Below are positions 18,803 to 62,960 of a stretch of 64,000 nucleotides of DNA, one piece after another. The position numbers were made by a program, and so were the translations under genes. The stretch covers positions 6,835-70,834 of the forward strand of contig VGJO01000002.1 of NCBI GenBank assembly GCA_016867415.1. Reading direction: 5' to 3'. A model generated the notes under the pieces. That model searched no databases. It was given only the letters and a program-made list of their open reading frames with translations, and was not told the DNA's origin. The DNA is from Candidatus Harrisonbacteria bacterium (GTDB taxonomy: Bacteria; Patescibacteriota; Minisyncoccia; UBA6257; UBA11618). The stretch's first letter is position 1. Each line of letters begins with the position of its first letter.

Positions 18803-18971
18803 TGAGCAAAATTGCAAGCGAAGTAATTTTGAATTGAGTTTTCGATTTCTTTCTGAGGAGAATCCCAGGGTATTCTAAAAGAAGTATATATTTGCCTCGC
18901 TGATGTGTACTCGAGAAAGTGGGAAAAGCCAACGTAGAAAAAAATCGTAAAATCCGCCAAAAGTACGAGCA
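18803..18971 (+). repeat. Dispersed intergenic repeat family, long copy A (3' core CCAAAAGTACGAGCA), ends 11 nt before greA ATG
   Basis: Shares GCGAAGTAATTTTGAATTGAGTTTTCGATTT... and GAAAAAAATCGTAAAATCCGCCAAAAGTACGAG with copies at 23017, 26775, 61885. Confidence 0.8.
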
Positions 18972-18982
18972 TATAAATAATT

Positions 18983-19450
18983 ATGAGCATCAGTGAACAA
19001 CAGTACTTTACAAAAGACCGTCTTGAAGAACTTAAAAAAGAACTCGAAGCCCTAAAGCATGATGGTCGTATTGAAATCTCCGAGCGGCTGAAGCGTGCCA
19101 AAGATCTGGGCGATCTTTCAGAAAATGCCGAATACCAGGAAGCGCGGGAATCCCAAAATATTCTAGAAAAAAGAATCTTCGAACTCGAAGAGATGATGAA
19201 GCATGCCGTCATCATCAAGAAATCCAGCGATCACACCCAAGTACGCATTGGCTCCACGATTATGACAAAGCACGGCAGCAAAGAACTCAAATTTACCATT
19301 GTGGGTGCGAATGAAGCTCGCCCTGAATCCGGTTTTATAAGCAACGAATCTCCTATTGGCAAAGCCTTCCTCGGAAAAAAAGCTGGAGATGAAGTCAAAT
19401 TTAAAGCTCCCAAGGGAGAAATGAGCTATAAAGTAGTCTCAGTAGATTAA
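18983..19450 (+). CDS. greA: Transcription elongation factor GreA
   Basis: 155 aa; N-terminal coiled-coil with DLSENAEY acidic tip motif; C-terminal FKBP-like domain. Confidence 0.92.
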   Translation: MSISEQQYFTKDRLEELKKELEALKHDGRIEISERLKRAKDLGDLSENAEYQEARESQNILEKRIFELEEMMKHAVIIKKSSDHTQVRIGSTIMTKHGSKELKFTIVGANEARPESGFISNESPIGKAFLGKKAGDEVKFKAPKGEMSYKVVSVD

Positions 19451-19460
19451 TCTTCCTCTT

Positions 19461-20918
19461 ATGCTCGAAGATCTCATTGCCGACCGTAAAAAAAAGCTCT
19501 CTCATTTTATCGAAGCGGGAATCAATCCGTATCCCGCTTTTGTTTCTGCCTTCACTCCGATAAATAAAGTAAAAGAATCCTTTACTGTTTGGTCGGAAGA
19601 AAAAAAAGATATCACCATTGTTGGCCGCATCACTGGCATGCGAGGCCAAGGTGGCGTCTTTTTTCTAGATATTTTTGATGGTACGGATAAGCTCCAGATA
19701 GTTGTAAAAAAAGATACTGTAGAAGAGCACTACGCTCTCTATCAAAACAATCTTGACATTGGAGATTTCTTGGAAAGCTCTGGCACTCTTTTTGTGACTG
19801 CAAAAGGTGAGAATAGTCTACTTGCAAAAAATCTCAAGCTTCTTGTAAAATCCCTCCGCCCCCTTCCCAGTAGTTACTATGGATTGGAAAATGAGGAGTT
19901 AAAGCTCCGCGAACGCTATCTCGATATCCTGACTGATCCCTTCGTCCGCGACCTTTTTATCAAGAAAAATATTTTCTTTACCTCTCTTCGCGACCATCTC
20001 AAAAAACATGGATTTCTTGAAGTAGAGACTCCAGTCCTCGAGTCCATCGCCGGTGGCGCCGAAGCCGAGCCTTTTATCACTCATCACAATGCCCTTGATC
20101 GCAATTTTTATCTTCGGATTTCCCTCGAGCTTCCCTTAAAAAAACTCCTTGTCGCCGGCTACCCTAAAGTCTTTGAGCTCGGCCGCGTCTTCCGCAATGA
20201 AGGCATTGATGCTGAGCATCTCCAAGACTACACCCAGTGCGAGTTTTACTGGGCCTACGCCGATTATCACGCGCTCATGGACTTTACCGAAGATTTATAC
20301 AAAAAACTCGTAAAAGATGTCACTGGCGGTCTCACGAACGAAAAAGATGGTCACACGCTTGACTGGAGTAAACCCCTCCCTCGCCTTAATTTTTGCGATC
20401 TTTTTGAAGAAAAATTTGGCCTAGATCCCCGCACCGCAAAGGAAGCTGAACTCACAAAAAAAGCCAAAGAAGAAAATATAAAGCTTGAAGGCCATGAAGA
20501 AGCCGGCCGTCTCATCGATCTCCTTTACAAGAAAAAGATTCGCCCCAATCTCATCCAGCCCTGTATTCTCATGAATCCGCCAGTGGTAATTGAGCCCTTA
20601 GCTAAAAGAACTGAAAAAGATCAAGCAGTTGTCGAACGCTTCCAAATCATTGCCGCCGGAAGTGAGCTCGGCAAAGGCTTTAGTGAACTCAATGATCCAC
20701 TCGACCAACGCACCCGCTTTGAGAGCCAGATGGAGCTCCGCAAGAAAGGGGATAAAGAAGCCCAAGAGCTCGACGAAGACTTCTTGACCGCGCTCGAGTA
20801 TGGCATGCCTCCAGCCGCCGGCTTTGGTCTTTCCGAACGCCTCTTTGCCATCATTATGGATCGACCCGTCCGCGAGACTGTCATCTTCCCCTTAATGAAA
20901 AACAAAGGTACTTTGTAA
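19461..20918 (+). CDS. lysS: Lysyl-tRNA synthetase (class II)
   Basis: 485 aa; class II motifs (FRNEGID, GxGxGxER-like GFGLSERL), OB anticodon-binding N-domain. Confidence 0.9.
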   Translation: MLEDLIADRKKKLSHFIEAGINPYPAFVSAFTPINKVKESFTVWSEEKKDITIVGRITGMRGQGGVFFLDIFDGTDKLQIVVKKDTVEEHYALYQNNLDIGDFLESSGTLFVTAKGENSLLAKNLKLLVKSLRPLPSSYYGLENEELKLRERYLDILTDPFVRDLFIKKNIFFTSLRDHLKKHGFLEVETPVLESIAGGAEAEPFITHHNALDRNFYLRISLELPLKKLLVAGYPKVFELGRVFRNEGIDAEHLQDYTQCEFYWAYADYHALMDFTEDLYKKLVKDVTGGLTNEKDGHTLDWSKPLPRLNFCDLFEEKFGLDPRTAKEAELTKKAKEENIKLEGHEEAGRLIDLLYKKKIRPNLIQPCILMNPPVVIEPLAKRTEKDQAVVERFQIIAAGSELGKGFSELNDPLDQRTRFESQMELRKKGDKEAQELDEDFLTALEYGMPPAAGFGLSERLFAIIMDRPVRETVIFPLMKNKGTL

Positions 20919-21025
20919 TCAAAGTACCGCAAGCACGATAAAACTATTTTAAAATACCCTACAAATAGTAAGGTATTTTCGCTCTAATCACGCAAAGTAA
21001 TGTGGAATATATTTGAGAGTTTGAC

Positions 21026-21080
21026 ATGTGAGCACCGAACGCAAGAAAAAAATCGAAAAAGACCTAAAAGAACGAGCGCC
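21026..21080 (+). repeat. Dispersed repeat family, short copy J (GAAAAAAATCGAAAAAGACCTAAAAGAACGAGCGCC)
   Basis: 3' module with three phased A-tracts plus GAGCGCC core. Confidence 0.65.
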
Positions 21081-21129
21081 TAGTAACCAGTTGTAAAGGA
21101 CCTGTAGAGAAGCATAATATAAAGTACAC

Positions 21130-22254
21130 ATGAATCTCCCTCCCTATAAGGCCTGGATCAATCTTAGTAAGTCCGCCATTGATAAAAATCTCTCTTTTTT
21201 TCGCTCTCTCCTCACTCCCAAAACCAAGCTTTTTGCCGTGATAAAAAGCAACGCCTATGGCCATGGCCTCCTCGACTTTTCCTCTATGATTAGTGAATCA
21301 AGAAAATGCGATGGCATCTGCGTCGACTCCGTGCAAGAGGGAATTGCGCTTAGAAAATATATCAAAAAGAAACCTATCCTTGTCCTCGGCGCCACCCTTC
21401 CCAAACTTTTTCCCTTGGCCAAAAAAAACGACATTATAATCACCTTATCAAACTTTGATGTTCTAAAAGCCTATCTTTCCTTACCTACTACTCATCGTCC
21501 TGACTTTCATCTTAAATTTGATACTGGCCTCCACCGACAGGGCTTTCAAAAAAATGAACTCCTCGAGCTCATTCATCTCTTAAAAAAAGAAAAGCTCCGC
21601 CCGCTAGGCCTCTATGCTCATTTTTCCGGCGCCCGCAAAGAAAGAAAAGAAGAAACAGAAAAAGAATTTATTCAATTCATTTCCATAATTAATCTTTTTC
21701 GGCAGACTGGTTTTAAAAAATTCCTCTCGCACATCAGCGCTACAGGCGGCACCCTCATGAATCCTAAATACCATCTCGATCTTGTTCGCATCGGCATGGG
21801 ACTCTTAGGCTATGAACCGCACGAAGAATATCATAATCTCTCGGTCACCTCCCTCTCTCCTGCTCTTTCTTTTCACTCCTACCTTTCCGAAATAAAAAAA
21901 ATCCCCAAAGGGGAGGGAATAGGCTACGATGGGGTAAAACAGACTAAAAAAGAAATGAAGATTGGCATCGTTCCTATTGGATATTGGCATGGCATCCCTC
22001 GCGCGCTTTCTGATAAGGGTAAAGTTCTTGTCCGAGGCAAAAAAACCTCTATCCTTGGTCGGATTTCCATGGACATGATTACTATTGATCTTTCCCATAT
22101 CTCCGAAGCCTTCTTTGGCGATCCAGTCACGCTGATTGGCACAGATGGCAAAGAATCACTCTCCGCTCTTGATCAAGCCAAAACAATAAATGCCTCCCAC
22201 TACGAATTTTTAACCCGCCTTAATCCGCTCATTAAAAAATACAACATTGAATAA
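21130..22254 (+). CDS. alr: Alanine racemase
   Basis: PLP-binding motif VIKSNAYGHG; 374 aa. Confidence 0.9.
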   Translation: MNLPPYKAWINLSKSAIDKNLSFFRSLLTPKTKLFAVIKSNAYGHGLLDFSSMISESRKCDGICVDSVQEGIALRKYIKKKPILVLGATLPKLFPLAKKNDIIITLSNFDVLKAYLSLPTTHRPDFHLKFDTGLHRQGFQKNELLELIHLLKKEKLRPLGLYAHFSGARKERKEETEKEFIQFISIINLFRQTGFKKFLSHISATGGTLMNPKYHLDLVRIGMGLLGYEPHEEYHNLSVTSLSPALSFHSYLSEIKKIPKGEGIGYDGVKQTKKEMKIGIVPIGYWHGIPRALSDKGKVLVRGKKTSILGRISMDMITIDLSHISEAFFGDPVTLIGTDGKESLSALDQAKTINASHYEFLTRLNPLIKKYNIE

Positions 22255-22260
22255 AACACT

Positions 22261-22971
22261 ATGAAAAAAATATATTTTCTTCTCTTCCTTATTTTTATCC
22301 TCTTTTCAGGCGGCGGCTATATTCTAAATTCCAAAGGTTTTTTTAATGTTCGATCCATCTCCGTAAGCGGCGCGACCACTACCGAGGAAAAAGAGATTAT
22401 TTCTTTCTTTAAACAACATGAAACCCAAACTAATTTTTTCTTAATAAAACAAAATGCTTTCATCCCAAAAGGTGCTCCCGCTATCAAAAAAATCACCATC
22501 ATTAAAGATTTTTTAAAAAGAAACATTAAACTCCAAGTGGAAGAACGGACGGCAATTGGCATTAGTTGTTTCTCCAAAGAAAATATGTGTTTTTATTTTG
22601 ATGATCAGGGCATTCTTTTTGCTGAAGCGCCTCGAATCCAAGGCGGTAAGCTGTTGATTTTCAGCCTTGACGCCGAGAAGCAAAAAAAACTTGGGGATAT
22701 GGTTATCCTATCCCGCTTCCTCCCGGCGCTCATATATTTTGCCACTCATCCGCCTAAAAATATTTTTTTTAATAAAATAATCATCGACGAAGCCAATCAA
22801 GAAATCCGCGGAATAATAAGCCGGAGCAATGGTACTCTTTTTCTCAGTCTCCGCTTCTCTCCTAAAGAACCTCTCCTTGCCCTAGAAAAACTCTTAGAAA
22901 CTAAAAAACCTGATCCACTAAAGCTCTCTACCCTCGACTTCCGCATCGAAAACCGCTTTTATTTCCGGTAA
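22261..22971 (+). CDS. ftsQ: Cell division protein FtsQ/DivIB-like (TM + POTRA)
   Basis: N-terminal TM helix, POTRA-like IKKITIIKDFLKRNIKLQVEERTAIG; context near alr. Confidence 0.55.
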   Translation: MKKIYFLLFLIFILFSGGGYILNSKGFFNVRSISVSGATTTEEKEIISFFKQHETQTNFFLIKQNAFIPKGAPAIKKITIIKDFLKRNIKLQVEERTAIGISCFSKENMCFYFDDQGILFAEAPRIQGGKLLIFSLDAEKQKKLGDMVILSRFLPALIYFATHPPKNIFFNKIIIDEANQEIRGIISRSNGTLFLSLRFSPKEPLLALEKLLETKKPDPLKLSTLDFRIENRFYFR

Positions 22972-23016
22972 AAATAATATAGAATTACAGTTCAAAACTT
23001 TACAAAGTAGATAAGT

Positions 23017-23153
23017 GTGTCAGTTCCGTGAAGTAATTTTGGATGGAGTTTTCGATTTATTTCCGAGGAGCCGCCACAGTGTACTAAGAGCTAGGTACAC
23101 ATGAGGAGGCACCGCAGGAAAAAATCACAAAATCCGCCAAAAGTACGAGCGCC
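23017..23153 (+). repeat. Dispersed repeat family, long copy B; ends 12 nt before ychF ATG
   Basis: About 90% identical to copy D (61885..62019); contains the 6-bp hairpin GTGTAC-TAAGAGCTAG-GTACAC and the 3' core CCGCCAAAAGTACGAGCGCC. Confidence 0.85.
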
Positions 23154-23165
23154 AAAAAAAGAATA

Positions 23166-24176: not shown

Positions 24177-24207
24177 CATAAAAATCTCCACCTCTAACTG
24201 AGAAGTA

Positions 24208-24486: not shown

Positions 24487-25401
24487 TTACAGACCAGTCA
24501 TTCCAGACCCTCCCGCACCGCCCGTATTTGAGCCAGCAGCACCCGAGTTTGGGTTAGTCACATTTCTCAATCCTGAAGTCCCACCACTGGTAGTACCCCC
24601 ACCGCCAGTACTCATCCCTGTAGATCCTCCAGTAGTCCCCCCAGTCGTTCCACTCGAACCCGTCCCACCACTGGTAGTACCCCCACCGCCAGTACTCATT
24701 CCTGTAGATCCTCCAGTAGTCCCTGCAGTATCCTCTTTTCTATCTCTTTCCTCCAGCGCTAAATCTATACAAGAGGGGGCATTTTTTTTGTCATTAATAA
24801 GAGCTAGATACAAAGCAAAGCTTCTCTTAATTTTTGCTTCCTCGTCACGAAGATAATTTATATTCTGTTCTAATTCTTTAGTCCTCATTTTTTCTTTTTC
24901 TAATGAGGAAAGCCTTTCTTTAATTTTATTCATCTTGTATCTAAATAAAGCTTCGATTGACTCAGAAACTTGCGATAAGTCTCTTGAGACAGGATCATCG
25001 ATGTATGCTGCGTATGCTTCTTCCAATTCATCAAAATATGTCCTCCCTACATAGAGAGAAAAAGAATCCGTATTCCCACTCCGCGACGGATCAAAAAAAA
25101 TAAAATCAAAGTCCCCCAACGACATGAGACTAACTGGACTGACTGGCACTTCATAAAAACTACGAATTCCACCAAATTTTGATCTGCAATTTAGCGTAGC
25201 AAGTTTTCCTTGGAGTAGAAGTTCCGACTGACTCGCTTTCAACCACTCTCTATTCTGTGACAAATTCGTTACAAAAAGACCCAAACAAATCATAAAAAGA
25301 AGAAAAAGAGCCGTCCGAATCACATACCCCACTCGGATATGCCTATTTGTATCCCGCACCTTCCTTTTCCCCTTACTCTCTATCTTTTTCTTCATAATCA
25401 A
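24487..25401 (-). CDS. Membrane-anchored protein with coiled-coil and C-terminal Gly/Thr/Ser-rich tandem repeats
   Basis: 304 aa; TM near N-terminus; C-terminal 28-aa unit GGSTGMSTGGGGTTSGGT... repeated twice. Confidence 0.6.
   Translation of the reverse strand: MIMKKKIESKGKRKVRDTNRHIRVGYVIRTALFLLFMICLGLFVTNLSQNREWLKASQSELLLQGKLATLNCRSKFGGIRSFYEVPVSPVSLMSLGDFDFIFFDPSRSGNTDSFSLYVGRTYFDELEEAYAAYIDDPVSRDLSQVSESIEALFRYKMNKIKERLSSLEKEKMRTKELEQNINYLRDEEAKIKRSFALYLALINDKKNAPSCIDLALEERDRKEDTAGTTGGSTGMSTGGGGTTSGGTGSSGTTGGTTGGSTGMSTGGGGTTSGGTSGLRNVTNPNSGAAGSNTGGAGGSGMTGL
24582..24749. repeat. Tandem repeat, 2 x 84 nt (encodes the G/T/S-rich units of the 24487..25401 protein)
   Basis: 24582-24641 and 24666-24725 nearly identical (1-2 mismatches). 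Confidence 0.85.
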
Positions 25402-26774: not shown

Positions 26775-26897
26775 GTGTCAGCTACGCGAAGTAATTTTGA
26801 ATGGAGTTTGCTATTTATTTCCGAGGAGCCAAGGGAGCACTACTAAGAGCTGGGTAACAGGAAAAAAATCGCAAACTCCGCCAAAAGTATGAGCGCC
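26775..26897 (+). repeat. Dispersed repeat family, long copy C; abuts the stop codon of the minus-strand M23 peptidase gene
   Basis: GTGTCAGCTACGCGAAGTAATTTTGAATGGAGTTTGCTATTTATTTCCGAGGAGCC...CCGCCAAAAGTATGAGCGCC. Confidence 0.85.
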
Positions 26898-26903
26898 CTA
26901 AAA

Positions 26904-31070: not shown

Positions 31071-31072
31071 AG

Positions 31073-35483: not shown

Positions 35484-35606
35484 TATTTTATCAATATAAT
35501 ACAGTAAATTACCCCTTTAAGCAAAGACATTTTCAATCGCCGAAGGCTAAAAAGTGGAGCGCAGGATTTTTAAGAAGAGTTTAGATTTTCTCTCTGAGTA
35601 TGGGAC

Positions 35607-35680
35607 GGAGCATTCTGCGGGAAGTATGTGAGTACTAAACGGAAGAAAAAAATTCAAAATCTTCCAAAAATACCAGCGAT
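35607..35680 (+). repeat. Dispersed repeat family, short (74-nt) copy G, degenerate 3' core; abuts the mraY stop codon
   Basis: GGAGCATTCTGCGGGAAGTATGTGAG...GAAGAAAAAAATTCAAAATCTTCCAAAAATACCAGCGAT aligns along its length with copy F (50930..51003). Confidence 0.7.
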
Positions 35681-35685
35681 AAAGG

Positions 35686-39264: not shown

Positions 39265-39417
39265 ACCCAAAATTTCAAACCTACTTTTTCTTCTATAAAA
39301 AGGCCCAAGCGAAGCGTTGGGCTACCAAAGGGGTGAGTCTCTGTTTAAAAAACAGAGAATAGAAATATCGATTGTACTCAATCAATATTTGTATAAAAAG
39401 ATTAAAAATCTTTTATT

Positions 39418-39579
39418 CACCCCTCCCTCTTTTGTGACCTTCTGCAGAAAAGAAGCGCGGCTTTTTTATAGCCTTATTTTTTCTTCTTACTCCCCAAAAA
39501 TAAGGCTATAAAAAATTCTTTTCGAAGCCTGAATGAAAACTCGCAGGAGCTTTCAAGTGTCACAAAAGAGGGAGGGGTG
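39418..39579. repeat. 162-nt long-hairpin inverted-repeat element (21-bp perfect outer IR, 20-bp perfect inner IR, 8-bp middle stem) upstream of dnaX
   Basis: CACCCCTCCCTCTTTTGTGAC (39418-39438) is the exact reverse complement of 39559-39579; TTTTTTATAGCCTTATTTTT (39462-39481) reverse complement at 39496-39515. Confidence 0.8.
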
Positions 39580-42395: not shown

Positions 42396-42824
42396 TCAAG
42401 CCACTCTTATGGTCGGATCTTGAGGCAAGGTCACCGTTTCCTCCTGACTCGGCTGGGATTGAGCCATAGAAACAGATAGGCTAGGGTTGTCCTTTAGCTC
42501 TGTTCGTAGAATGATTACTGTTTTCGGGGCTTTTATTCCGAGCTTAGCAAACCCGAATCCGATCTTAACGACCGTCGCTTCTACGTTCCCACCAATAATG
42601 ATTTTCTCTTTGAGCTTCCTTGTTAATATTATTTGAGATGATCCCTCTCCACCCGAAGTGGATCTTCCATTGCCCGGAGCAACGAGCTCTCCTCGAAGGA
42701 TTGAGACAGAGAGCGGCGCTTCTATGAGAAGCACCACCCGGCGTCCTTTGACTGCGTTGACCTTTATGAAGATATCGTTTCCAATCTTTATCTTTTCACC
42801 AATCTTCCTTGATAGTACAAGCAC
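42396..42824 (-). CDS. csrA: Tandem-duplicated (single-chain pseudo-dimeric) carbon storage regulator CsrA; GTG start
   Basis: Two consecutive CsrA domains (MLVLSRKIGEKIKIGNDIFIKVNAVKGRRVVLLIEAPLSVSILRGEL and IILTRKLKEKIIIGGNVEATVVKIGFGFAKLGIKAPKTVIILRTEL) joined by a Gly/Ser linker; RBS GGGAGG 6 nt upstream of the GTG. Confidence 0.8.
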   Translation of the reverse strand: MLVLSRKIGEKIKIGNDIFIKVNAVKGRRVVLLIEAPLSVSILRGELVAPGNGRSTSGGEGSSQIILTRKLKEKIIIGGNVEATVVKIGFGFAKLGIKAPKTVIILRTELKDNPSLSVSMAQSQPSQEETVTLPQDPTIRVA

Positions 42825-45085: not shown

Positions 45086-45472
45086 AAAGGGAAGCCGATA
45101 AGCCGGATTCTGTCATAATCTAATAAAAGATTATGGGATGGCAATTTGTCTATGCGGCACTCCCAGCATCACTTTTTATTCCTCATGAGGAATAAAAAGT
45201 GATGCTGGGCACGGCCTTGCACTCAGGTAAGGGTTTAGCCGTTTCATCAGAGAAATATGAGACTTCTTTCTCTGCTGGAGGCAAGATCTCTCCTCCGCGA
45301 TTTCTTTTCAAAAACCACCGTCTCTGTTCGCACCTCGAGCTTAGGAGGTTGCCCTCCCTATACCGACAGGCTTACACCTGCTACCCATTACTACAAAGAT
45401 TACTCCTCATAGTGAGTGTCCGGACTTTCCTCAGCAAAGCTTACGCTCTGCCGTAACCATCAAGCTTCCCAA
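45086..45472 (-). ncRNA. rnpB: RNase P RNA (bacterial type A), about 385 nt
   Basis: Minus-strand sequence contains the conserved P4 5' strand GAGGAAAGUCCGGAC, the GUGCGAACAGAGACGG region (cf. E. coli GUGCAACAGAGAG) and the P4 3' strand ACAGAAUCCGGCUUAUCGG; P1 formed by GGGAAGCU/GGCUUCCC at the ends; contains a 23-bp perfect helix (45160-45210). Confidence 0.85.
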
Positions 45473-46018: not shown

Positions 46019-46126
46019 ATAATAAAGTTCTTATAAATAATTAATTCTTTTTAAGAGTAACAGTACAAGCTAAAAAAGTAGAACACAGGATTTTTGAACT
46101 TCTTTTTGTTCTTCTTTCCTAAAAAG

Positions 46127-46278
46127 GTACTAAGAGCTACCTGCGGGAAGTTTATGAGAAACATCCTTAGAAAAAAAGATGGGCCTCCACTACTTCTAGA
46201 TTAAAAAAAGAAGAAAGAGAAGCATCAGCTAAGATGGGGTCGGCTACACAAGCAAAAGAAGGCAAAAGTATGAGCGTC
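46127..46278 (+). repeat. Dispersed repeat family, copy H (rearranged: GTACTAAGAGCTAC loop motif + CTGCGGGAAGTTTATGAG + GCAAAAGTATGAGCGTC); abuts the nrnA stop
   Basis: Contains modules shared with copies B/D (CTAAGAGCTA) and F/G (CGGGAAGT.TGAG). Confidence 0.7.
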
Positions 46279-46285
46279 AAATAAT

Positions 46286-47441: not shown

Positions 47442-47479
47442 ATTCTACACAATATACACCAAATCCATATAAAAAAGAA

Positions 47480-47804
47480 AAAACCCCCACGCTGTTAGCA
47501 TGGGGGAATCTGATTGACCACTCTTGCTCTTCAAATTGAGGGGAATGAAAGAACCGAAGAGCGAGAGAGTGTTAGGTTTTGTTCAAGATCGCTTGAACAG
47601 TGGCTTATACTTCCGAAAAGTGGAAGGAGAGACCGCCACACCTGTCATTTAAGAAAGATCTCAGTCATGTCTTCTAGTCTTTAAAAACATAACCGGCGTC
47701 CCAAATTCTCTTGCGAGAGGGGCACGACTTTCGATACCTGCTATTTCAAAAGATTAAAGAGTGGAGTTTTAATATTTCTCTCTTATATACTCTTCACCTT
47801 TTCT
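47480..47804 (-). ncRNA. Candidate novel structured ncRNA (about 320 nt), class unknown; own consensus promoter and intrinsic terminator
   Basis: Minus-strand TTGACA (47839-47834) / 17-bp spacer / TATAAT (47816-47811); no ORF >=60 aa; terminator CCCCCAUGCUAACAGCGUGGGGG + U-run at 47516-47480; internal 12-bp stem CUCUUGCUCUUC/GAAGAGCGAGAG and GUUCAAG-AUCG-CUUGAAC hairpin. Confidence 0.5.
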
Positions 47805-47810
47805 AATATA

Positions 47811-47839
47811 ATTATAGCAAACCATAATAAACTTGTCAA
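47811..47839 (-). promoter_or_regulatory. Perfect consensus sigma70 promoter (minus strand TTGACA-17-TATAAT) for the candidate ncRNA
   Basis: Reverse complement of 47811-47839 = TTGACAAGTTTATTATGGTTTGCTATAAT. Confidence 0.7.
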
Positions 47840-47861
47840 TACAAATCTGCTAAAATCACCA

Positions 47862-47895
47862 AAAAAGCCCTTAAAATTGGCTTTTTTGGTAGTTT
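47862..47895. terminator. Bidirectional terminator downstream of rpmA
   Basis: AAAAAAGCC CUUAAAAUU GGCUUUUUU. Confidence 0.6.
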
Positions 47896-47912
47896 TTATA
47901 TCGATTTTTTAA

Positions 47913-48185
47913 TTATAAAACCGACACTTCCTTAAGATTCCGGGTCCGGCCATCAAACCTGGTCTTTTTTCTATCCTTAAAAGACACTACCCCCGCCTTT
48001 CCGGCATAAAGTGTGTCATCTCCACCCCTTTTTACACCAATTCCCTCTATGTAATGACTTCCTCGCTGCCGAAGGATGATCTGGCCGGGTTCTACTACCT
48101 GTCCATGATTAATTTTGACTCCAAGGCGCTTAGCTCGTGAATCTCTGCCATTTTTAGTACTACCGCCCGATTTAGTTTGTGCCAT
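47913..48185 (-). CDS. rpmA: 50S ribosomal protein L27 (no adjacent rplU)
   Basis: MAQTKSGGSTKNGRDSRAKRLGVK typical L27 start. Confidence 0.93.
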   Translation of the reverse strand: MAQTKSGGSTKNGRDSRAKRLGVKINHGQVVEPGQIILRQRGSHYIEGIGVKRGGDDTLYAGKAGVVSFKDRKKTRFDGRTRNLKEVSVL

Positions 48186-48405
48186 ACCTCTTATATATAC
48201 GCCTTACTTTTTCGATTAATTTCTACTTTTTTCTTGAGCGGAATCCTCATTTACTCAGCTCTGGTATGCTGCAGCTCCTGCTCAGAAAAAAAGTAGAAAT
48301 TTCCTCGAAAAATTCTATGCTTAGTTGATTGCTTAGTCCCAAAATTACCTCATTAAAGTAATCTGAGCTTGTTTTTATTGTAGGTTTTATTATATTACAG
48401 AAGAT

Positions 48406-49524: not shown

Positions 49525-49543
49525 TCCTCTAACAAGTCAATTT

Positions 49544-49594
49544 GAGTGAAGGACTTACTGAAAAAAGGGAAAAATCGCCAAAAGTATGAGTGTC
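49544..49594 (+). repeat. Dispersed repeat family, short copy I between convergent pgk and rplI
   Basis: GGGAAAAATCGCCAAAAGTATGAGTGTC. Confidence 0.65.
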
Positions 49595-50020
49595 CTACTT
49601 CCTAACTATCTTTAATTTCACTTTTCCCCCCACCCCCATTGGCCATCTTACCTCAATCTCTTCCTCTCCTAGCTTCTTAATTGTTTGTTTCAGTAAGACC
49701 TTCTCCTCTTTCACTCCTTTTTGTTCTAATTCTTTCTCTATCCTCTCTCGATTCACTCCTTCAAACACCTGGCCCCTATCCCCTGCAGAAACAGCAATCT
49801 CTATCCCCTCCGACTTTATTTTTTCGTATTCCTTTTCATATCGCGCTTTGCGCGCCTCCTCCTCCCGCTCCGCCTCCTTTTTCATACCTATCGCCCGCTC
49901 ATCCGAAAAAATCCCCAATCCTTTTTTAATAAGAAAATTCCTCCCATACCCCTCCGCCACATCTACTACTTGATTTCGCCGCCCCACTCCCTTCACGTCC
50001 TTTATAAGTAAGACTCTCAT
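49595..50020 (-). CDS. rplI: 50S ribosomal protein L9 (start MRVLLIKD)
   Basis: N-terminal L9 motif VILLKDVKGVG... FLIKKGLG. Confidence 0.88.
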   Translation of the reverse strand: MRVLLIKDVKGVGRRNQVVDVAEGYGRNFLIKKGLGIFSDERAIGMKKEAEREEEARKARYEKEYEKIKSEGIEIAVSAGDRGQVFEGVNRERIEKELEQKGVKEEKVLLKQTIKKLGEEEIEVRWPMGVGGKVKLKIVRK

Positions 50021-50790: not shown

Positions 50791-50929
50791 TCTAGGAATA
50801 CTTTGCATTCAAAGCATTCGCTAATCGCATGAAGAAATCCCTTCAATACAATATTATATTGAAGGGATTTCTTTTTACGCAGATTCCTATTAAATTTGAC
50901 ACTAATAAAATAGAAAAGATGAACGCAAA

Positions 50930-51003
50930 GGAGCATACTGTGAGAAGTATGTGAGAAACCATTACAGAAAAAAAATCAAAAAAGACCAAAAAGTACGAGT
51001 GCC
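50930..51003 (+). repeat. Dispersed repeat family, short (74-nt) copy F; ends 15 nt before the ctpA stop
   Basis: GGAGCATACTGTGAGAAGTATGTGAGAAACC...GAAAAAAAATCAAAAAAGACCAAAAAGTACGAGTGCC. Confidence 0.8.
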
Positions 51004-51018
51004 AAGAAGACTTCTGGT

Positions 51019-52809: not shown

Positions 52810-53230
52810 TCTTACAAAAATTTCAGAGAAAGACCGCAGAGCTCTAGCCTATGAGATGCGCCGCATAATGAAGGCTCACGATGGCGTCGGCCTCTCGGCC
52901 AACCAACTCGGCCTCTCACACCGCTTCTTCATCGCCGAAAACAATCGCAAATTCTACGCCATCTGGAATCCAGAGATTTCCAAAATCTCTAATAAAAGCG
53001 CTACTGAAGAAGAAGGTTGCCTCTCGATTCCTGGCGTCTTTGGCCAAGTCTCCCGTTCCATCGCCGTCACTCTTACTGGCCTCGATCTCCGTGGTAAAAA
53101 AGTCTCTCACAAAGCAACTGGTTTCTTAGCCCGCATCTTCCAGCATGAGCTCGACCATCTTGATGGTATTCTCTTCACCGACAAAGCCACTAATATCCGC
53201 GAAGAATCCCTGCCCGTTTCTATACAATAA
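52742..53230 (+). CDS. def: Peptide deformylase
   Basis: GVGLSANQLG, EGCLSIPG, HELDHL motifs. Confidence 0.92.
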   Translation: MTIITVHNKKQEQILRTKTDPSDLTKISEKDRRALAYEMRRIMKAHDGVGLSANQLGLSHRFFIAENNRKFYAIWNPEISKISNKSATEEEGCLSIPGVFGQVSRSIAVTLTGLDLRGKKVSHKATGFLARIFQHELDHLDGILFTDKATNIREESLPVSIQ

Positions 53231-53260
53231 AAAATCACTACAATGTAGTGATTTTTTATT
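53229..53260. terminator. Bidirectional intrinsic terminator between def and the DEAD-box helicase gene
   Basis: AAAAAAUCACUA CAAUG UAGUGAUUUUUU. Confidence 0.85.
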
Positions 53261-53270
53261 GTATAGATTC

Positions 53271-57832: not shown

Positions 57833-57857
57833 ATCTCGGACCCTTCTCTTAAAAAAA

Positions 57858-58271: not shown

Positions 58272-58288
58272 CGGTAGTGATCAGCTTT

Positions 58289-59035: not shown

Positions 59036-59672
59036 GAGATCTTTTCCTTAAAAGAACTGTCTTGAAAGTAACGCGGGTTTCCCCGCACTAACACACCAGC
59101 CATAAGAATAGCAAATCATAATAATTATTGCAAGTCACTTGCATTTGTAGTCGACTCCCTTCATGTACCGCACATCACACATTCTCCCCTATCCGGCTAA
59201 AAGTCCGCCGCACCCGCGGCCGGCAAGCCCTCCTTGCAATAATGAAATCCACCAAAAAACCATCTTAGAAAGAGAGCCCAGCTCTCATCACCATCAATCG
59301 GCCATATTCATATCTCCCCCTCTAGGACTTTCTTCATCAAGGTATAATTAACAAGATTGTAGCGAGTAAAAAATAAAGTCCTCTACTAGCTCATCTCGGA
59401 AAGTTATCTCCACCATCACATGATCTGCAAGAATTATGGCCTGATCAAACAGATAAAAAACTGAGCCTCCACCGCGCTCGACAAAAACACTCTAAAAACA
59501 AAAGATTTTTCCACCATCCGACATCACTCTCTTGAATTTTTCGGCCTCTGCCGCAAGTGCGCCCGTAATTAATCACCTAATCCAGCTTGACTTCTTTCTT
59601 TTCCGTAATCTCCTAAATTCACTTCTCTATGTTTTTTAATTTATCTCTTTATAGAAATTATCCTCAGTAAAA

Positions 59673-60548
59673 TTATAAAATTAAATTACTTCCTTCCTTC
59701 ACTTTCTCCCCCGCTTTTTGGATTTTTGTAAGCACTAATTTCCCGCTTTCATCGAGCCGTGAACCGAGGAGTTTCACCCGCTCATCACTCTCATTCACTG
59801 TGAAAGCCCCGGGCTCGAGGTGCAGGGCCCGAATTATATTATGAATCTTATTCGCCTTTTCTCCCCCGTTTTCGATCGCATCCCGCACATCATAGATGAG
59901 AATGAAGCCGTCCTCCGTCTGAATCTTTTTGGTAAGCGTCGCCCTCTCCTCGCTCTGTCTATGCGGCGCGATCCCCCCGGCCCTATATAGAGGCAGTGCC
60001 TCAACAAGGGCCTCCAACGAGGCCTGAGCAAGCTTTTGCTCCAGACTTTCATAAGTATCGCTCTTAGCTATCTCTACTCGTCTCTGGGCCAAAATACCCC
60101 CAGTATCCACGCCAGCATTAAGCACAAAGACCGATGTCCCCGTCTCTGTCTCCCCATTCATAATCGCGGTCTGGATCGGCGTCGCCCCCCGATATTTAGG
60201 AAGCATAGACGGATGCACCCCCACTACACCCTTCGGCGGCAACTCCACGAGCCACTGTGGCAATATCCGCCCATAGGCCGCAAGCACAAAACACTCCGCC
60301 TGGAGGCTCTCAAGCTCCTGCGAAAAACTCGCATCAAACTCCATCGGGGTAAAAATCTTGATCCCTACCCCCAGCTTCTCATTCATCTCCAAGGCCGCCT
60401 GCTTCACAAGAGATGGGGTAAGCACTTTCTTCTTCCCCTTCAAAGCATCCGGCGCAGTCACTATAGCCTGTGGCACCAGCCCCTTGCTAATCAGCCCCCG
60501 AAAAATCACCTCCGCAAACCTCGGCGTCCCAAAAAACACATACTTCAT
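59673..60548 (-). CDS. fmt: Methionyl-tRNA formyltransferase (start MKYVFFGTP; ORF extends in-frame to 60557)
   Basis: Formyltransferase SLLP motif HPSMLPKYRG, N-terminal FFGTP...; C-terminal FMT domain. Confidence 0.88.
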   Translation of the reverse strand: MKYVFFGTPRFAEVIFRGLISKGLVPQAIVTAPDALKGKKKVLTPSLVKQAALEMNEKLGVGIKIFTPMEFDASFSQELESLQAECFVLAAYGRILPQWLVELPPKGVVGVHPSMLPKYRGATPIQTAIMNGETETGTSVFVLNAGVDTGGILAQRRVEIAKSDTYESLEQKLAQASLEALVEALPLYRAGGIAPHRQSEERATLTKKIQTEDGFILIYDVRDAIENGGEKANKIHNIIRALHLEPGAFTVNESDERVKLLGSRLDESGKLVLTKIQKAGEKVKEGSNLIL

Positions 60549-60824
60549 CCCCTCCATACTACTTTCCCTTCAAAAAATTATCAAAATAGTGCTGCCATAA
60601 ACAACAAAACAAAAGAGCTGGATTCCGGCTCGGGGTCCGGAATGATAACCTCTCATATTTTCATCCACTAAGAAAAATTTCAAAAAACAGAGAAGTTTTG
60701 GAGGATTTTTTTTCGAAGGGCTAGACGCCTCCGAGTACCGCGACCAAGATGCACATAAGGGAAATACTTCGCGGGAGCGGACGGAGGAGGCAACAACGCC
60801 ATTCGGAAAAAAGACCTAAAAATC

Positions 60825-61805
60825 CTAGAATCGAGCTTTAATATATGTGCCTGCTTCGGAGACAGTTAACGCCGTCGTTGAATTCCCCGTCCTGATATAA
60901 AAATATTCCTCCCCATTATACTGCAAATACGCCGGTTGATCCGACAGCCCCACCTTGATAAGACAGAGTTCCTTATCCTCCGCCTTTAAGAAATAAAATT
61001 TTACAAACCGACGAAACTCTGCCCCAATCGTCTCCCGAAAAAGAATCGTAAAGTAATTTTCAAAGCCGTCCGAATTTTTTTTCTTCAGACTTTCATAGTC
61101 CTGCAAGAGTCCCAAGACCTCCCCTTGATCCGTGACCCCGATGAGTACCTGACCGCCATGCGTGTTTAAAAACGCCGCCACCGTTTTAAGAACTGAGTAC
61201 TCCAAAGCACTATTCACCTTCCCGAGCTTCATATCCCACCGAAATGTTGATTTGAATTCCAGATCCTCCCGCTCTCTTTCATGCAAGAGCTTCCCTAAAT
61301 CAATTTCTTTTTTCTCCTCTCGTTTATTTTCGATATTCAGCCGATGCGCAATAAGCTTTGCAGTATACTTCGGACTCTGGATATACCCCATTGCCACCGT
61401 CTGCTTATCATCTTTATCTTGTATCACCACCGTTCCATAGCGAAACATCCCGCCAAAATACTGGGCATGATGATAGGTCTTAATCGGCGGCTCAAATTTA
61501 TAAATATCTCTCTTCTTAAAAAAAACTCCCCGCTCATGAATAATAAGCCGCGGATAAACAGCATAAGTCTCCGAAAGCCACCGGAACACCGCAAACAAGA
61601 AAAGAAACGCTTCAAAGAGGATAATCCCCGTTATTTTGAGGATATCGTAAGAAATGTAGTCGTATAGATTAAAAGTCTGAAAAAGCTCGTTATAATTTGC
61701 CAAAAAACCAAGAAAAAAATACCCAAGAATCGCCAAAAGCTGATATAAGACAAGGTCCCGAATAATGACTATTGGATTCTTCTTCACGAGCAGTGGCCTA
61801 GTCAT
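60825..61805 (-). CDS. Membrane-anchored fusion of a bacterial PH (bPH_2/YdbT-like) domain and an AlbA_2 (Schlafen-like) domain
   Basis: Two N-terminal TM helices plus PH-like segment (YPRLIIHERGVFFKKRDIYKFEPPIKTYHHAQYFGGMFRYGTVVIQ); C-terminal EREDLEFKSTF...LKTVAAFLNTHGGQVLIGVTDQGEVLG is the classic AlbA_2 signature. Confidence 0.6.
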   Translation of the reverse strand: MTRPLLVKKNPIVIIRDLVLYQLLAILGYFFLGFLANYNELFQTFNLYDYISYDILKITGIILFEAFLFLFAVFRWLSETYAVYPRLIIHERGVFFKKRDIYKFEPPIKTYHHAQYFGGMFRYGTVVIQDKDDKQTVAMGYIQSPKYTAKLIAHRLNIENKREEKKEIDLGKLLHEREREDLEFKSTFRWDMKLGKVNSALEYSVLKTVAAFLNTHGGQVLIGVTDQGEVLGLLQDYESLKKKNSDGFENYFTILFRETIGAEFRRFVKFYFLKAEDKELCLIKVGLSDQPAYLQYNGEEYFYIRTGNSTTALTVSEAGTYIKARF

Positions 61806-61884
61806 GCAAAAACAATATCAGAAACCTATCCGAAGATAAAGATGCATAGAAACTCTCCTAAAAATATTACAAAGCTCATAAGGC

Positions 61885-62019
61885 GTGTCAGTTACGCGAA
61901 GTATTTTTGGATGGAGTTTGCGATTTATTTCCGAGGAGCCACCGCAGTGTACTAAGAGCTAGGTACATGAGGAGGTACCATAGGAAAAAATCGAAAAATC
62001 CGCCAAAAGTACGAGTGCC
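61885..62019 (+). repeat. Dispersed repeat family, long copy D; ends 8 nt before the stop of the LTD gene
   Basis: About 90% identical to copy B. Confidence 0.85.
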
Positions 62020-62027
62020 CTTACATA

Positions 62028-62798
62028 CTACCTATGCCACAGCTGATCCTTTTCGAGAGTAGAGTAAGAAACCTCATCTATCAGTACCCCCTCCGCATTA
62101 TAAAGAAGCACCGAATTATCTTTATATGCCAGAGCGCTCGATTTATTACTATATCTGAGATCCGCCTTCCCCGCATACTCGCTATGCGCTACGATAAAAT
62201 ACCCTCTCGGCCCAATATCTCCACTGAAAGCTTCCTTAGCCACGAGATTACTCATAATCCCACTCTTTGTTTTCTTTTTTAAAGCAAATCCCTTAAGACT
62301 GACCACTTCGTTGCTATCATTAAAAAACCGCACATACTCCGCATCCGCATTCGTCTCCGATCCAGCCATAAGTTCAAGTATTCTTATTGAGGAAGAACTA
62401 ATGACGTTTGAAGTGCTACTAGTACTCACAGTACTCGTCGGACTCGTACTCGCATAATCCGTCACTTTATAAGAAATTATGGGCAGTGCCGAGGCCTGCA
62501 CTCCCGTCCCAAACTCCGCCATGTTTTTTTGACTAGCTGGAGCAATGTCAGTGGACCGAGGCTCTGCCTTAGCTACCAACACCTGAGCCTCTTCCTCTCT
62601 TTTTAGATTCACTACTACCTTCTCTTCTTTCTTATCCTGATCCTTTTCTCCCAATATCTGCGACAATTTCTCCTCCCCTTCTCGCTTTGAAAGCATCTCT
62701 GTCTGTGCGATAAGCCACTCTCTAAAACCCGGCATAAAAAAGACCACTCCCACCTCAACCAAAACCAGCGCCCCTAAAATACCAACAAAAAACTTCAT
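62028..62798 (-). CDS. Secreted/membrane-anchored lamin-tail-domain (LTD) protein, ComEC-associated type
   Basis: N-terminal TM; Ser/Thr-rich linker; C-terminal LTD-like beta domain (ILELMAGSE...EYVRFFN...GYFIVAHSEY...LLYNAEGVLIDEVSY). Confidence 0.55.
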   Translation of the reverse strand: MKFFVGILGALVLVEVGVVFFMPGFREWLIAQTEMLSKREGEEKLSQILGEKDQDKKEEKVVVNLKREEEAQVLVAKAEPRSTDIAPASQKNMAEFGTGVQASALPIISYKVTDYASTSPTSTVSTSSTSNVISSSSIRILELMAGSETNADAEYVRFFNDSNEVVSLKGFALKKKTKSGIMSNLVAKEAFSGDIGPRGYFIVAHSEYAGKADLRYSNKSSALAYKDNSVLLYNAEGVLIDEVSYSTLEKDQLWHR

Positions 62799-62839
62799 AC
62801 AATTATCAGATTTATATTTAAAAACGAATAAGTAGATTT

Positions 62840-62960
62840 AAGTAAAGTAATTTTGGAGAATTTTTCGATTTTCTTTTCGAGCAGCGAGCGGAGCATACTC
62901 CAGAAAGTCTGTGAGCACACAGCGCAGAAAAAAAATCAAAAAGACCCAAAAGTACGAGTT
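62840..62960 (+). repeat. Dispersed repeat family, copy E; directly abuts the stop codon of the ComEC-MBL gene
   Basis: AAGTAATTTTGGAGAATTTTTCGATTTTCTTTTCGAGCAGCG...CAGAAAAAAAATCAAAAAGACCCAAAAGTACGAGTTTC. Confidence 0.8.

Follow-up and report, generated by a model that had tools for sequence, protein, structure and literature searches.

Which kind of element recurs between the genes of a 64-kb stretch of a Candidatus Harrisonbacteria genome (64 000 nt, the whole DNA analysed, below 'the window'), nearly always on the same strand and close to gene ends whatever the direction of the gene? The first-pass annotation listed ten copies here, all on the plus strand, and recognised no described family. 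We observed that the repeat family is real: in ∼125 kb of one MAG (two contigs), searches that included a covariance model (cmsearch) and nhmmer gave 24 copies, all of them intergenic, or roughly one every 5 kb. The window contains 12 copies, 11 on the plus strand and one on the minus strand (Table 1). All ten listed copies were found at or near the places given for them; two copies, K and M, had been missed, as had the main feature of the family, a hairpin. The shared 3′ module was upheld: its core AAAAGTAYGAGYGYC had 11 matches in the window with at most two mismatches (0.89 expected; none of 100 shuffles reached 11), nine of them good and on the plus strand, and a longer 3′ pattern had six matches with 0 expected.

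Table 1. Copies of the repeat in the 64-kb window, with search scores and adjoining genes
Copy	Position	Strand	Form	Score	Context and folds
A	18814..18976	+	full hairpin, apical insert of ∼35 nt; terminal core changed to ...GAGCATATAAAT (−10-like box)	cmsearch 107 bits, E 5e-23	3′ end 6 nt before greA ATG; RNA fold, top −37 vs bottom −29 kcal/mol
I	20988..21083	+	internal deletion	cmsearch 22 bits, E 0.006; nhmmer E 5e-6	flanked by lysS terminator hairpin and alr promoter (TTGTAA-16-CATAAT, 21091-21118)
B	23024..23156	+	full length; subfamily-specific 5′ extension from about 23000 (TTACAAAG..ATAAGTGTGTCAG)	cmsearch 138 bits	3′ end 9 nt before ychF ATG
C	26782..26900	+	complete arms, shortened apex	cmsearch 102.5 bits	3′ end 3 nt from stop of minus-strand M23 peptidase gene; 5′-side slack 486 nt
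F	35555..35683	+	full length	cmsearch 113 bits	3′ end 2 nt from mraY-type gene stop; 5′ end 71 nt from tRNA-Arg
H	46079..46281	+	interrupted by ∼75 nt of a second repeat, also on the other contig (blastn to L129/L179)	cmsearch 28.5 bits, E 2e-4	3′ end 4 nt from nrnA-like stop
K	48195..48324	−	sole opposite-strand copy; compensatory changes in arms, CTAC/GTAG replacing CGAT/ATCG	cmsearch 69.6 bits, E 4e-14; nhmmer E 1e-11	3′ end 9 nt upstream of ATG of minus-strand rpmA (L27; Pfam Ribosomal_L27, 47913-48185)
J	49528..49597	+	remnant, 3′ arm and core only	exact core match; nhmmer E 0.01	occupies whole 70-nt gap from pgk stop to rplI stop
G	50921..51006	+	truncated: apex and 3′ arm	nhmmer E 4e-8, sequence and fold	12 nt from ctpA stop, downstream of separate yceI terminator hairpin
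M	60694..60826	+	divergent; arms AGTTTTGGAGGATTTTTTTTCGAA / TTCGGAAAAAAGACCTAAAAATCCT recognisable	cmsearch 15.8 bits, E 0.2 (weak)	3′ end touches SLFN/AlbA_2 gene stop; MFE −49 kcal/mol
D	61892..62022	+	best-scoring full copy	cmsearch 143 bits	3′ end 5 nt from LTD stop; folds, top vs bottom: RNA −48.6 vs −35.9, DNA −23.9 vs −18.5
E	62838..62965	+	full length	cmsearch 121 bits	stop codon of MBL-fold gene (62961-62963) inside last bases of element

Long copies had been described as a 5′ module added to a 3′ module whose A-tracts, phased at 10–11 nt, would make the DNA intrinsically bent. In fact, the two modules are reverse complements of each other and make up the arms of one ∼55-bp imperfect hairpin, and thus each long copy, a unit of ∼120–135 nt, forms a single long hairpin. 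The A-tracts, spaced ∼8.5 and 10.5 nt apart in copy D, belong to an A-rich 3′ arm that pairs with the T-tracts of a T-rich 5′ arm, so that a hairpin with covariation takes the place of the bend. The apex between the arms is purine-rich and conserved, with the sequence ...YGAG..GGAGCAUAC-loop-GUAUGUGAG...; the 6-bp apical hairpin GTGTAC...GTACAC of the first-pass annotation was found in copies B and D.

Compensatory changes maintain the hairpin. The covariance-model alignment, a check for conserved structure proposed along with the original observation, gave 31 conserved pairs with 92% of cells paired (80% in shuffles, 44–58% in slid control alignments); 14 of these pairs had compensatory changes on both sides, and none of 500 shuffles matched the observed values. 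In copy N2 the foot helix was wholly replaced (GCAUG/CAUGC).

The copies are 65–93% alike, yet their structure and purine-rich apex persist in the face of a mutation bias that works strongly the other way. Copies B and D, located in unrelated contexts, are 93% identical over 83 nt. Many copies are degenerate or truncated: G, I and J belong to this class, and truncated, duplicated or interrupted forms also include L164c and H. Nested copies occur as well, and a fragment adjoins copy N1. Copy F, taken earlier for a short copy (35607-35680), is full length, while G is indeed truncated; copy H, described as shuffled, is a copy with an insert of another repeat.

We observed that the orientation of copies follows strand composition, not gene direction, as had been proposed. 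The GC3 skew of the window's plus strand was negative (∼−0.5) in 47 of 47 genes of both directions, a pattern with which the second contig and the extensions agree. As the skew stays at this value whatever the gene direction, copy orientation tracks a replication-type strand asymmetry rather than transcription. For 23 of 24 copies, the C-rich DNA strand is the one that carries the top strand of the element (binomial p = 2e-5 already at 20 of 21). Of the 21 placed copies, seven adjoin a co-directional gene at its start and 14 a convergent gene at its stop. The strand rule is unusually strict; still, it is not the absolute rule first described, since 11 of the 12 window copies obey it and copy K does not.

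The purine-rich top strand is also the better-folding one. As RNA it was more stable than the bottom strand in 15 of 16 copies, by 7 kcal/mol on average, and with DNA parameters in eight of eight. It carries 22 G.U against 6 A.C and 19 purine-purine against 2 pyrimidine-pyrimidine mismatches, and its GC skew is +0.08 to +0.35, while neutral sites on the same DNA strand have ∼−0.5. If the GC skew has its usual sign (G-rich leading strand), the better-folding strand would lie on the leading-strand template, a leading/lagging assignment made only from the skew sign; the C-rich strand carries the ribosomal-protein, tuf/fusA and groESL operons, which one would not expect of a lagging strand.

At gene ends the 3′ end of the element is flush: its median distance to a gene start or stop is 5 nt, compared with 80 nt for the 5′ end. 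The range of 0–47 nt reported earlier holds for every copy, and the names given to the neighbouring genes (greA, alr, ychF, M23, mraY-type GT4, DHHA1/nrnA, L9, S41/ctpA, LTD, MBL) were right. At convergent genes 14 copies begin 0–20 nt past the stop codon, and in E and N3 the stop codon falls inside the element end. The co-directional downstream genes include rpsL, greA, ychF, ftsX, rpmA and mnmA; at gene starts the 3′ end was flush in five cases (5–10 nt), and for five copies in sense orientation the foot of the hairpin ended 9–14 nt before the AUG. Shine-Dalgarno sequences are rare in the genome (8 of 52 genes), and its starts are of leaderless type.

The copies are not promoters or terminators of the usual kind for the genes beside them, a point on which we concur with the first-pass annotation. 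Promoter-like and terminator-like sites around copies were no more frequent in the scan than by chance, no conserved −35/−10 pair stood at a fixed distance, and genuine hairpin and T-run terminators are separate from the element, next to G and I. The copy in front of rpsL is immediately preceded by a sigma-70-like promoter (TTGCTA..CATAAA), and an ATAAG/ATAAT box is present 7–17 nt upstream of many copies. We rejected an intrinsic terminator, a GC-rich stem with a U-tract right behind it on the transcribed strand, as a candidate: no T-run follows the top-strand hairpin, and one (CTTTTT) follows the bottom-strand hairpin only in A, F and H. Of the earlier interpretation, the polarity and the exclusion of promoters and terminators were supported, and bent DNA and an absolute orientation rule were not.

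Most probably, these repeats form a new family of small elements of mobile type. More specifically, with a probability of about one half, we characterize them as a lineage-specific, non-autonomous REPIN/MITE-like family of hairpin repeats polarised via a single-stranded DNA stage. Such a unit would have spread within the lineage by being copied, and the form recognised would be the top-strand hairpin in single-stranded DNA. Signs of mobility in the sequence, namely the B/D identity in unrelated contexts, the damaged copies, the stop codons within element ends and the absence from relatives and islands, point in this direction: in syntenic relatives (YchF 64–65% identical) the intergenic gaps are 35–83 nt with no copy, and two zero-skew, recently acquired islands have none. 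The strand rule could arise by two routes, either insertion coupled to replication, as in HUH/Y1-type single-strand transposition, or preferential loss of copies with the stronger hairpin on the lagging-strand template. On the usual reading of the GC skew the stronger hairpin is on the leading-strand template, and so the second route fits better. The flush 3′ end might in part come about because, in a leaderless, Shine-Dalgarno-poor genome, the promoter of the neighbouring gene needs space 5′ of the element.

Several observations count against mobility. Maintenance of structure and apex against mutation bias could equally mean a host function, and neutral insertion would not favour positions 5–10 nt from gene starts of leaderless type. 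The proteins of ∼125 kb that were scanned or already annotated included no Y1/HUH transposase, RAYT or TnpB; no direct repeat indicating target-site duplication flanked any of 21 copies, nor was there a conserved flanking tetranucleotide. We saw no presence/absence polymorphism, contigs of several samples being 99.5–100% identical over the copies.

REPINs and REP-BIMEs with their RAYT (TnpA-REP) are believed to function in the form of single-stranded DNA (PMC3116915, PMC6006769), and the present family shares with REPINs the extragenic, high-copy and species-specific occurrence and the ∼100-nt unit with two inverted arms folding into a long imperfect hairpin, along with subfamilies within one genome and the lack of target-site duplication. 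The REP/REPIN hallmark, a GTAG or GTGG tetranucleotide 0–2 nt 5′ of the hairpin foot (PMC6006769), is, however, absent here: the foot is GAAGTA.../...GTACGAG, or even GCATG/CATGC (N2), and the foot region has the top-strand sequence (A/C)GCGAAGTA and the bottom-strand sequence GGCGCTCGTAC, with GTAG only in the rpsL copy. Also, the arms are rich in A/T tracts, whereas REPIN arms are GC-rich; no RAYT gene (Y1 HUH), of which REPINs have a single cognate one, usually with repeats on either side, was seen in ∼125 kb; and the 23:1 strand polarity with flush 3′ end is not described for REPINs. IS200/IS605 elements transpose as single strands from the lagging-strand template, with functional imperfect hairpins on one strand only (PMC6006769). 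The likeness lies in an orientation that seems tied to replication direction, hairpins on one strand and insertion without target-site duplication. Those elements, however, have separate left and right subterminal hairpins and insert 3′ of a fixed tetranucleotide, whereas here one hairpin runs from end to end between unconserved flanks; we found no Y1 transposase or TnpB, and the active-looking strand is, on the usual skew reading, on the leading-strand template, opposite to the IS608 paradigm. The IS200/IS605-type MITE suggested by the first-pass annotation is not borne out in the ∼125 kb.

ERIC sequences of enterobacteria and Correia elements of Neisseria are MITE-like imperfect palindromes of 100–155 bp at gene borders; both orientations occur, and Correia elements duplicate a TA target. 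The present family resembles them in size, in the whole-element hairpin, in short intergenic sites next to or overlapping gene ends, and in the presence of full and internally deleted forms, but differs in its nearly fixed orientation relative to strand composition, in the lack of duplication and in having no sequence similarity to either. A classical (DDE-transposase) MITE was considered and rejected: inverted arms are present, but no target-site duplication flanks the 21 copies. The sequence seen contained no parent IS with matching ends, and plasmids, phages and viral contigs gave no match.

A somewhat unlikely alternative is that the top strand acts as a structured RNA. Co-directional genes would have it as an extended 5′ leader or as a hairpin between cistrons; at convergent ones it would form the 5′ part of antisense transcripts, or a protein-binding RNA, for instance one that titrates an RNA-binding regulator. 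The top-strand-specific stability, the G.U pairs, the purine-rich internal loops and the conserved apex with covariation are all consistent with RNA, as are the foot 9–14 nt before AUG in a Shine-Dalgarno-poor genome, the promoter by the rpsL copy, the ATAAG/ATAAT boxes, and a two-domain CsrA gene in the window together with several GGA motifs on the top strand. On the other hand, 14 of the 21 placed copies run antisense to all that surrounds them and have the same top-strand bias, many copies are damaged, and relatives retaining the same genes lack the family. The chance-level promoter-like sites, with no −35/−10 at fixed distance and no top-strand U-tract, also speak against RNA; with no conserved promoter or terminator, the sRNA family suggested earlier is not supported. 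Rfam at gathering threshold gave only three tRNAs in the window, and when E values as high as 10 were admitted, nothing but generic long-hairpin models came up (13–22 bits); phages, plasmids and viral contigs had no match to the element, in agreement with the view that it belongs to no described family.

It is improbable that the copies are a polar signal of the host at DNA level, i.e. strand-oriented hairpins or protein-binding sites for replication, segregation or nucleoid organisation, with a logic like that of KOPS, Chi, Ter or single-strand initiation sites but far longer. One could cite for it the near-absolute polarity tracking GC skew and not transcription, the roughly regular occurrence in native DNA (∼1 per 5 kb) with absence from recent islands, the fold favoured with DNA parameters too, and the conservation against mutation bias. 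Still, the polar signals known from chromosomes are oligomers of a few bases and not hairpins of 130 nt; the spacing is irregular (no copy in the 18-kb ribosomal operon or in 10 kb of L187), many copies are degenerate, relatives lack the element, and no candidate binding protein was found.

More improbable still is that the bottom-strand RNA forms hairpins at the 3′ ends of mRNAs from the G-rich strand and terminates or stabilises these transcripts, as REP and ERIC do at ends of transcription units. The 14 copies just past convergent stops, the CTTTTT run in F, H and A and the lack of another terminator-like site downstream of M23 fit this idea; but the bottom strand folds worse in exactly such copies (D, N1, N2, N3, L129a), most copies have no U-tract after the bottom-strand hairpin, N3 lies inside a probable MFP-ABC-permease operon, seven copies stand upstream of genes in the other sense, and the genome has separate canonical hairpin and T-run terminators.

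The chance that these are integron attC-type sites, recombined as folded single strands, is close to nil: the likeness to Vibrio cholerae repeats (∼120–130-nt imperfect palindromes in one orientation by gene ends, one strand folding preferentially) is superficial, since RYYYAAC / GTTRRRY core sites are absent (the ends are ...GCGAAGTA and GTACGAGCGCC), nothing is organised as cassettes, the flanking genes have core housekeeping roles, run both ways and keep their synteny in relatives, and no integron integrase occurs in the sequence seen. The sole recombinase in the ∼125 kb is a large serine recombinase, located in an island.

The 3′ core of the repeat (AAAAGTAYGAGYGYC) matched the window 11 times with at most two mismatches, against 0.89 matches expected, and a 31-nt pattern for the 3′ module matched six times with none expected. 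All ten copies listed in the first-pass annotation were recovered by repeat finding and alignment; seven long copies served to build a profile and a covariance model (R1), with which the census was revised. Copy F, at an mraY-type gene, had been called short and is in fact full length. The copies at ctpA (G), alr (I) and rplI (J) are truncated remnants, and copy H, at an nrnA-like gene, is split by a ∼75-nt piece of another repeat. With the two copies that had been overlooked the window holds 12, of which 11 lie on the plus strand, the orientation stated earlier for every copy listed, and one, copy K at rpmA, lies on the minus strand.

The window belongs to a contig of 209 580 bp (proteins including MBM3281370.1 and MBM3281410.1; locus tags FJY91_). 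A second contig (35 kb; stretches L129, L179, L186 and L187) has the same protein accession series (MBM3281649.1) and the same unusual strand composition. Together, the window and the fetched flanks cover ∼125 kb of the MAG on two contigs. In this sequence R1 and nhmmer found 12 further copies outside the window, and the element makes up roughly 2.5% of the sequence covered.

Table. Element copies added or revised in the census, and other features of the sequence covered. L-numbers denote fetched DNA stretches beyond the window.
Feature	Sequence	Position	Strand	Context
Copy F, full length	window	35555-35683	+	mraY-type gene
Copy K	window	48195-48324	-	found with profile/covariance model
Divergent copy	window	60694-60826	+	found with profile/covariance model
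Copy	outside window			before rpsL
Copy	outside window			between ftsE and ftsX
Copy	outside window			adjoining tRNA-Gly
Copy O	outside window			beside an island
Copy	outside window			after efp
Copy	outside window			at mnmA
Five of six copies	second contig			abut stops of convergent genes: DUF4015, MacB-type permease, MFP gene, DUF4383-like gene, saccharopine dehydrogenase
Copy L129b, the sixth	second contig			124 nt upstream of co-directional gene
5′-arm fragment (CGTGAAGTAATTTTGGAG)	L179	~1790-1842		directly upstream of copy N1
Second palindromic element	window	39417-39579		upstream of dnaX
Its 80%-identical copy	L179, second contig	18016-18159		upstream of rmuC
Third short repeat	window	46180-46265		inserted in copy H
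Third short repeat	L179	16306-16356		in H-like copy adjoining saccharopine dehydrogenase gene
Serine recombinase island	L182	12455-15660		~12-15 kb past right end of window
Zero-skew region	L186, second contig	12500-19000
Tandem CsrA gene	window	42396-42824	-
24-bp palindromes	window	3023-3075; 45162-45209; 53219-53267		after fusA; between convergent genes
Gene-free stretch	window	47442-47912
ORF without Pfam match	window	24487-25401	-
Two direct repeats	window	24578-24729		within the preceding ORF

The modules distinguished in the first-pass annotation are present, but they are not separate units: the 5′ module (GAAGTAATTTTGGATGGAGTTTGCGATTTATTTCC) and the 3′ module (GGAAAAAAATCGCAAACTCCGCCAAAAGTAC) are reverse complements of each other, so that every long copy folds as a single rod-like hairpin of ∼55 pairs. 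The three A-tracts, read at first as a sign of intrinsically bent DNA, pair with T-tracts of the opposite arm (in copy D, at an LTD gene, their centres are ∼8.5 and 10.5 nt apart), which makes bending unnecessary as an explanation. In a model-based alignment of 11 distinct copies, standard pairs filled 92% of cells, as compared with 79.6% after column shuffles and 44–58% with slid partners, and 14 of the 31 pairs had changed on both sides. The check for conserved structure proposed earlier, a covariance model of the long copies, thus yielded a covarying hairpin whose pairing values were matched by none of 500 shuffles. Compensatory changes include GCG/CGC versus GGG/CCC and, in copy K, CTAC/GTAG versus CGAT/ATCG; in copy N2, outside the window, the entire foot helix is swapped for GCAUG/CAUGC. 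The apex extends the rod by covarying short helices (GCC/GGU, GCG/CGC, CGC/GCG, GGC/GUC) and carries the conserved purine-rich motifs YGAG, GGAGCAUAC and GUAUGUGAG.

The two strands of the hairpin are not equivalent. On the top strand, which has the A-rich 3′ arm, paired columns contain 22 G·U against 6 A·C, and 19 purine–purine mismatches against 2 pyrimidine–pyrimidine ones. Of 16 copies folded with RNA parameters, 15 are stabler as the top strand than as its complement (by a mean of 7 kcal/mol; Wilcoxon p 0.002), as are all eight folded with DNA parameters. Given this asymmetry in pairs, mismatches and stability, the conserved form is the single-stranded top strand, either as RNA or as DNA.

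GC skew at third codon positions (GC3 skew, given on the plus strand of the window) is negative in 47 of 47 window genes, on either strand (−0.13 to −0.78; means −0.45 and −0.53), so the whole window is one replichore with extreme strand bias. Values near −0.5 continue in the extensions and in the second contig (L179, L182, L188); the nearest relatives, at ∼0 to 0.15, have almost no strand bias. Of 24 copies, on two contigs that are each uniform in skew, 23 have the top strand of the element on the C-rich strand (binomial p for orientation bias 2e-5, at 20 of 21 copies). That orientation does not depend on gene direction, as had been claimed, was borne out by the placed copies, seven of which face a co-directional start and 14 a convergent stop. 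A recent inversion behind copy K was not supported, as rpmA still has GC3 skew of the local sign. The top strand of the element is G-rich (GC skew +0.08 to +0.35), against a strong C-richness at neutral sites of the same DNA strand. Simple decay under local mutation bias therefore does not account for the copies: such bias would yield A·C mismatches on the top strand and not G·U. With GC skew read in the usual way, the C-rich strand would be the leading-strand template. This strand codes for the ribosomal-protein cluster, for rpsL-fusA-tuf and for groESL, which would be unexpected if it were the lagging one.

Copies tend to end at gene boundaries in the enlarged set too. The median distance to the neighbouring gene boundary is 5 nt for the 3′ end and 80 nt for the 5′ end, 20 of 21 copies have a 3′ gap smaller than their 5′ gap, and uniform intergenic placement is rejected (Fisher p 7e-10). 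The neighbour of copy N1 is tRNA-Asn; in copies E, at an MBL-fold gene, and N3 the stop codon of the neighbour lies inside the element. We rejected the idea that the element supplies a TAG stop, TAG being common in all genes of the G-rich strand.

The difference between 5′ and 3′ gaps follows in part from leaderless-type gene build. Among all window gene starts a loose Shine-Dalgarno-like motif was seen in 8 of 52 genes; many window genes have a TATAAT-like −10 box 6–10 nt before the ATG, which suggests leaderless mRNAs, and genes inside operons are coupled in a TAA-N3-4-ATG pattern. With such starts the 5′ side of a copy in antisense context must keep ∼40–90 nt for the promoter of the next gene, e.g. 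the tRNA-Arg promoter adjoining copy F. Promoter room does not explain the five sense-context copies that end 5–10 nt before the ATG (rpsL, greA, ychF, ftsX and rpmA).

The explanation that we favour, with a probability of about one half, is a non-autonomous REPIN/MITE-like hairpin repeat that has multiplied within this lineage. It is suggested by nearly identical copies at unrelated sites (93% identity between B and D), by the existence of subfamilies and of truncated, duplicated, nested and interrupted copies, by overlap with gene ends, by empty sites in relatives and by the lack of copies in recently acquired islands. Recognition would act on the conserved top-strand hairpin as single-stranded DNA. 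The strand rule could have arisen by insertion coupled to replication, or by preferential loss of copies with the stronger hairpin on the lagging-strand template; given the usual skew sign, preferential loss fits better.

The closest relatives, reached via YchF homologues, are only 64–65% identical; they keep the order greA-lysS-(serS)-alr...ychF...M23-gltX with intergenic gaps of 35–83 nt and no element, and thus supply empty sites and no cross-species covariation. The view that this is not a described element was upheld by Rfam (no similar family at gathering thresholds or at permissive E-values), by BLAST against phage and plasmid collections and by a scan of viral contigs, none of which gave a match. 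Across genome contigs the 17-nt core had chance matches only among the matches listed, none with the extended motif. A 31-nt gapped pattern hit at least 41 stretches of metagenome contigs, two of them genuine (L129 and L135, identical in sequence), in a scan that was not exhaustive, as JGI contigs with known matching copies (L165) were not returned. The overlapping contigs, all 99.5–100% identical, gave no presence/absence polymorphism. As far as these data reach, the family is lineage-specific.

A structured RNA of the top strand, acting as leader or antisense, is possible though unlikely. The conserved strand could be RNA as well as DNA. Promoter and terminator scans were at chance level, in line with the earlier argument that the copies are not promoters or terminators of the flanking genes; canonical hairpin-plus-T terminators and a good alr promoter adjoin copies G and I, and no U-tract follows the top-strand hairpin. 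An upstream ATAAG/ATAAT box was unconvincing as a −10 element, with G often at position 6 and no −35.

It is rather doubtful that the hairpins are a host-maintained, strand-polar structured element and not a selfish repeat. Such an element may be a single-stranded-DNA signal that is read, in a minimal CPR cell, by the machinery for replication or segregation, or a top-strand RNA module that takes the place of absent Shine-Dalgarno or leader signals, with control over sense and antisense neighbours; in either form selection would hold it on one replication strand. A linked possibility, raised by the ribosomal and chaperone operons on the C-rich strand, is that the replication strand bias of this lineage is unusual, perhaps inverted, and very strong. 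A polar DNA signal of the host, considered by itself, is improbable: near-fixed orientation is its attraction, and the relatives have the same gene order with empty sites. Bottom-strand 3′ hairpins, serving as 3′-UTR stabilisers where copies abut stops, are distinctly improbable, as the bottom strand is weaker precisely in the stop-abutting copies; a T-run follows the bottom-strand hairpin only in copies A, F and H. Integron attC sites have a negligible chance, with no core sites at the ends, no integrase in the ∼125 kb covered and syntenic core genes as neighbours.

Canonical REPs have GT[AG]G at the hairpin foot (PMC6006769), which this element lacks. The IS200/IS605-type MITE put forward in the first-pass annotation differs in anatomy from the single hairpin without fixed flank seen here, and a DDE-type MITE was rejected by the target-duplication test. 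No transposase was found in the ∼125 kb covered, where the sole recombinase is a large serine recombinase within a zero-skew island. The family fails the defining tests of every named class that could be tested.

Genomes of Patescibacteria (CPR) are held to be streamlined and repeat-poor, and in the literature searched we found no papers linking CPR with REP- or MITE-type repeats. Hairpin-forming interspersed repeats as such are known; this family combines a near-fixed orientation with a structure specific to one strand and with flush 3′ ends, in a CPR genome. To our knowledge, the strand rule is among the strictest for bacterial interspersed repeats. Should the polarity stem from the insertion mechanism, it would point to a single-strand mobilisation system in CPR; should it stem from selective loss, it would be a natural case of orientation-dependent hairpin instability at replication forks. 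If functional, the element would represent either a dispersed RNA regulator or a polar genome signal of a new kind, in an organism without classical translation-initiation signals. In practice, the covariance model could serve in this lineage as a marker with which to assign strand and replichore and to bin contigs.

Several other repeats and loci were observed. The 5′-arm fragment beside copy N1, which comes from another copy, points to nested or tandem insertion. The palindrome upstream of dnaX has a perfect 21-bp closing stem (CACCCCTCCCTCTTTTGTGAC / GTCACAAAAGAGGGAGGGGTG); it was rejected as SRP RNA, since Rfam gives neither SRP nor another family. The third short repeat contains GATGGGCCTCCACTACTTCTAGATTAAAAAAAGAAGAAAGAGAAGCATCAGC. 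The ∼3.2-kb island in L182 has zero GC3 skew, encodes a 572-aa large serine recombinase, is flanked by 26-nt direct repeats (GCCAAAKAAATCTTTGGCTCGAACCT) and has inverted repeats of 137–154 nt inside; its start coincides exactly with the 3′ end of an element copy, and it ends adjoining tRNA-Thr. The zero-skew region of L186 encodes an HTH protein, an endonuclease VII and a LexA-like/methyltransferase fusion. It has probably been acquired recently, as a mobile or phage-like segment, and is free of element copies.

The three perfect 24-bp palindromes, with A-run and T-run flanks, are likely bidirectional intrinsic terminators. The 471-nt gene-free stretch, possibly an RNA gene that has escaped recognition, has GC-rich stems (e.g. 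CCCCCACGCTGTTAGCATGGGGG) and is without a match in Rfam. The top strand of the element has several GGA motifs, GGA being the recognition core of CsrA, and the window encodes a 142-aa protein with two Pfam CsrA matches, a tandem CsrA. The direct repeats in the 304-aa ORF without Pfam match are 68 nt long, 96% identical and 84 nt apart, and its product looks like a repetitive Thr/Gly/Pro-type surface protein.
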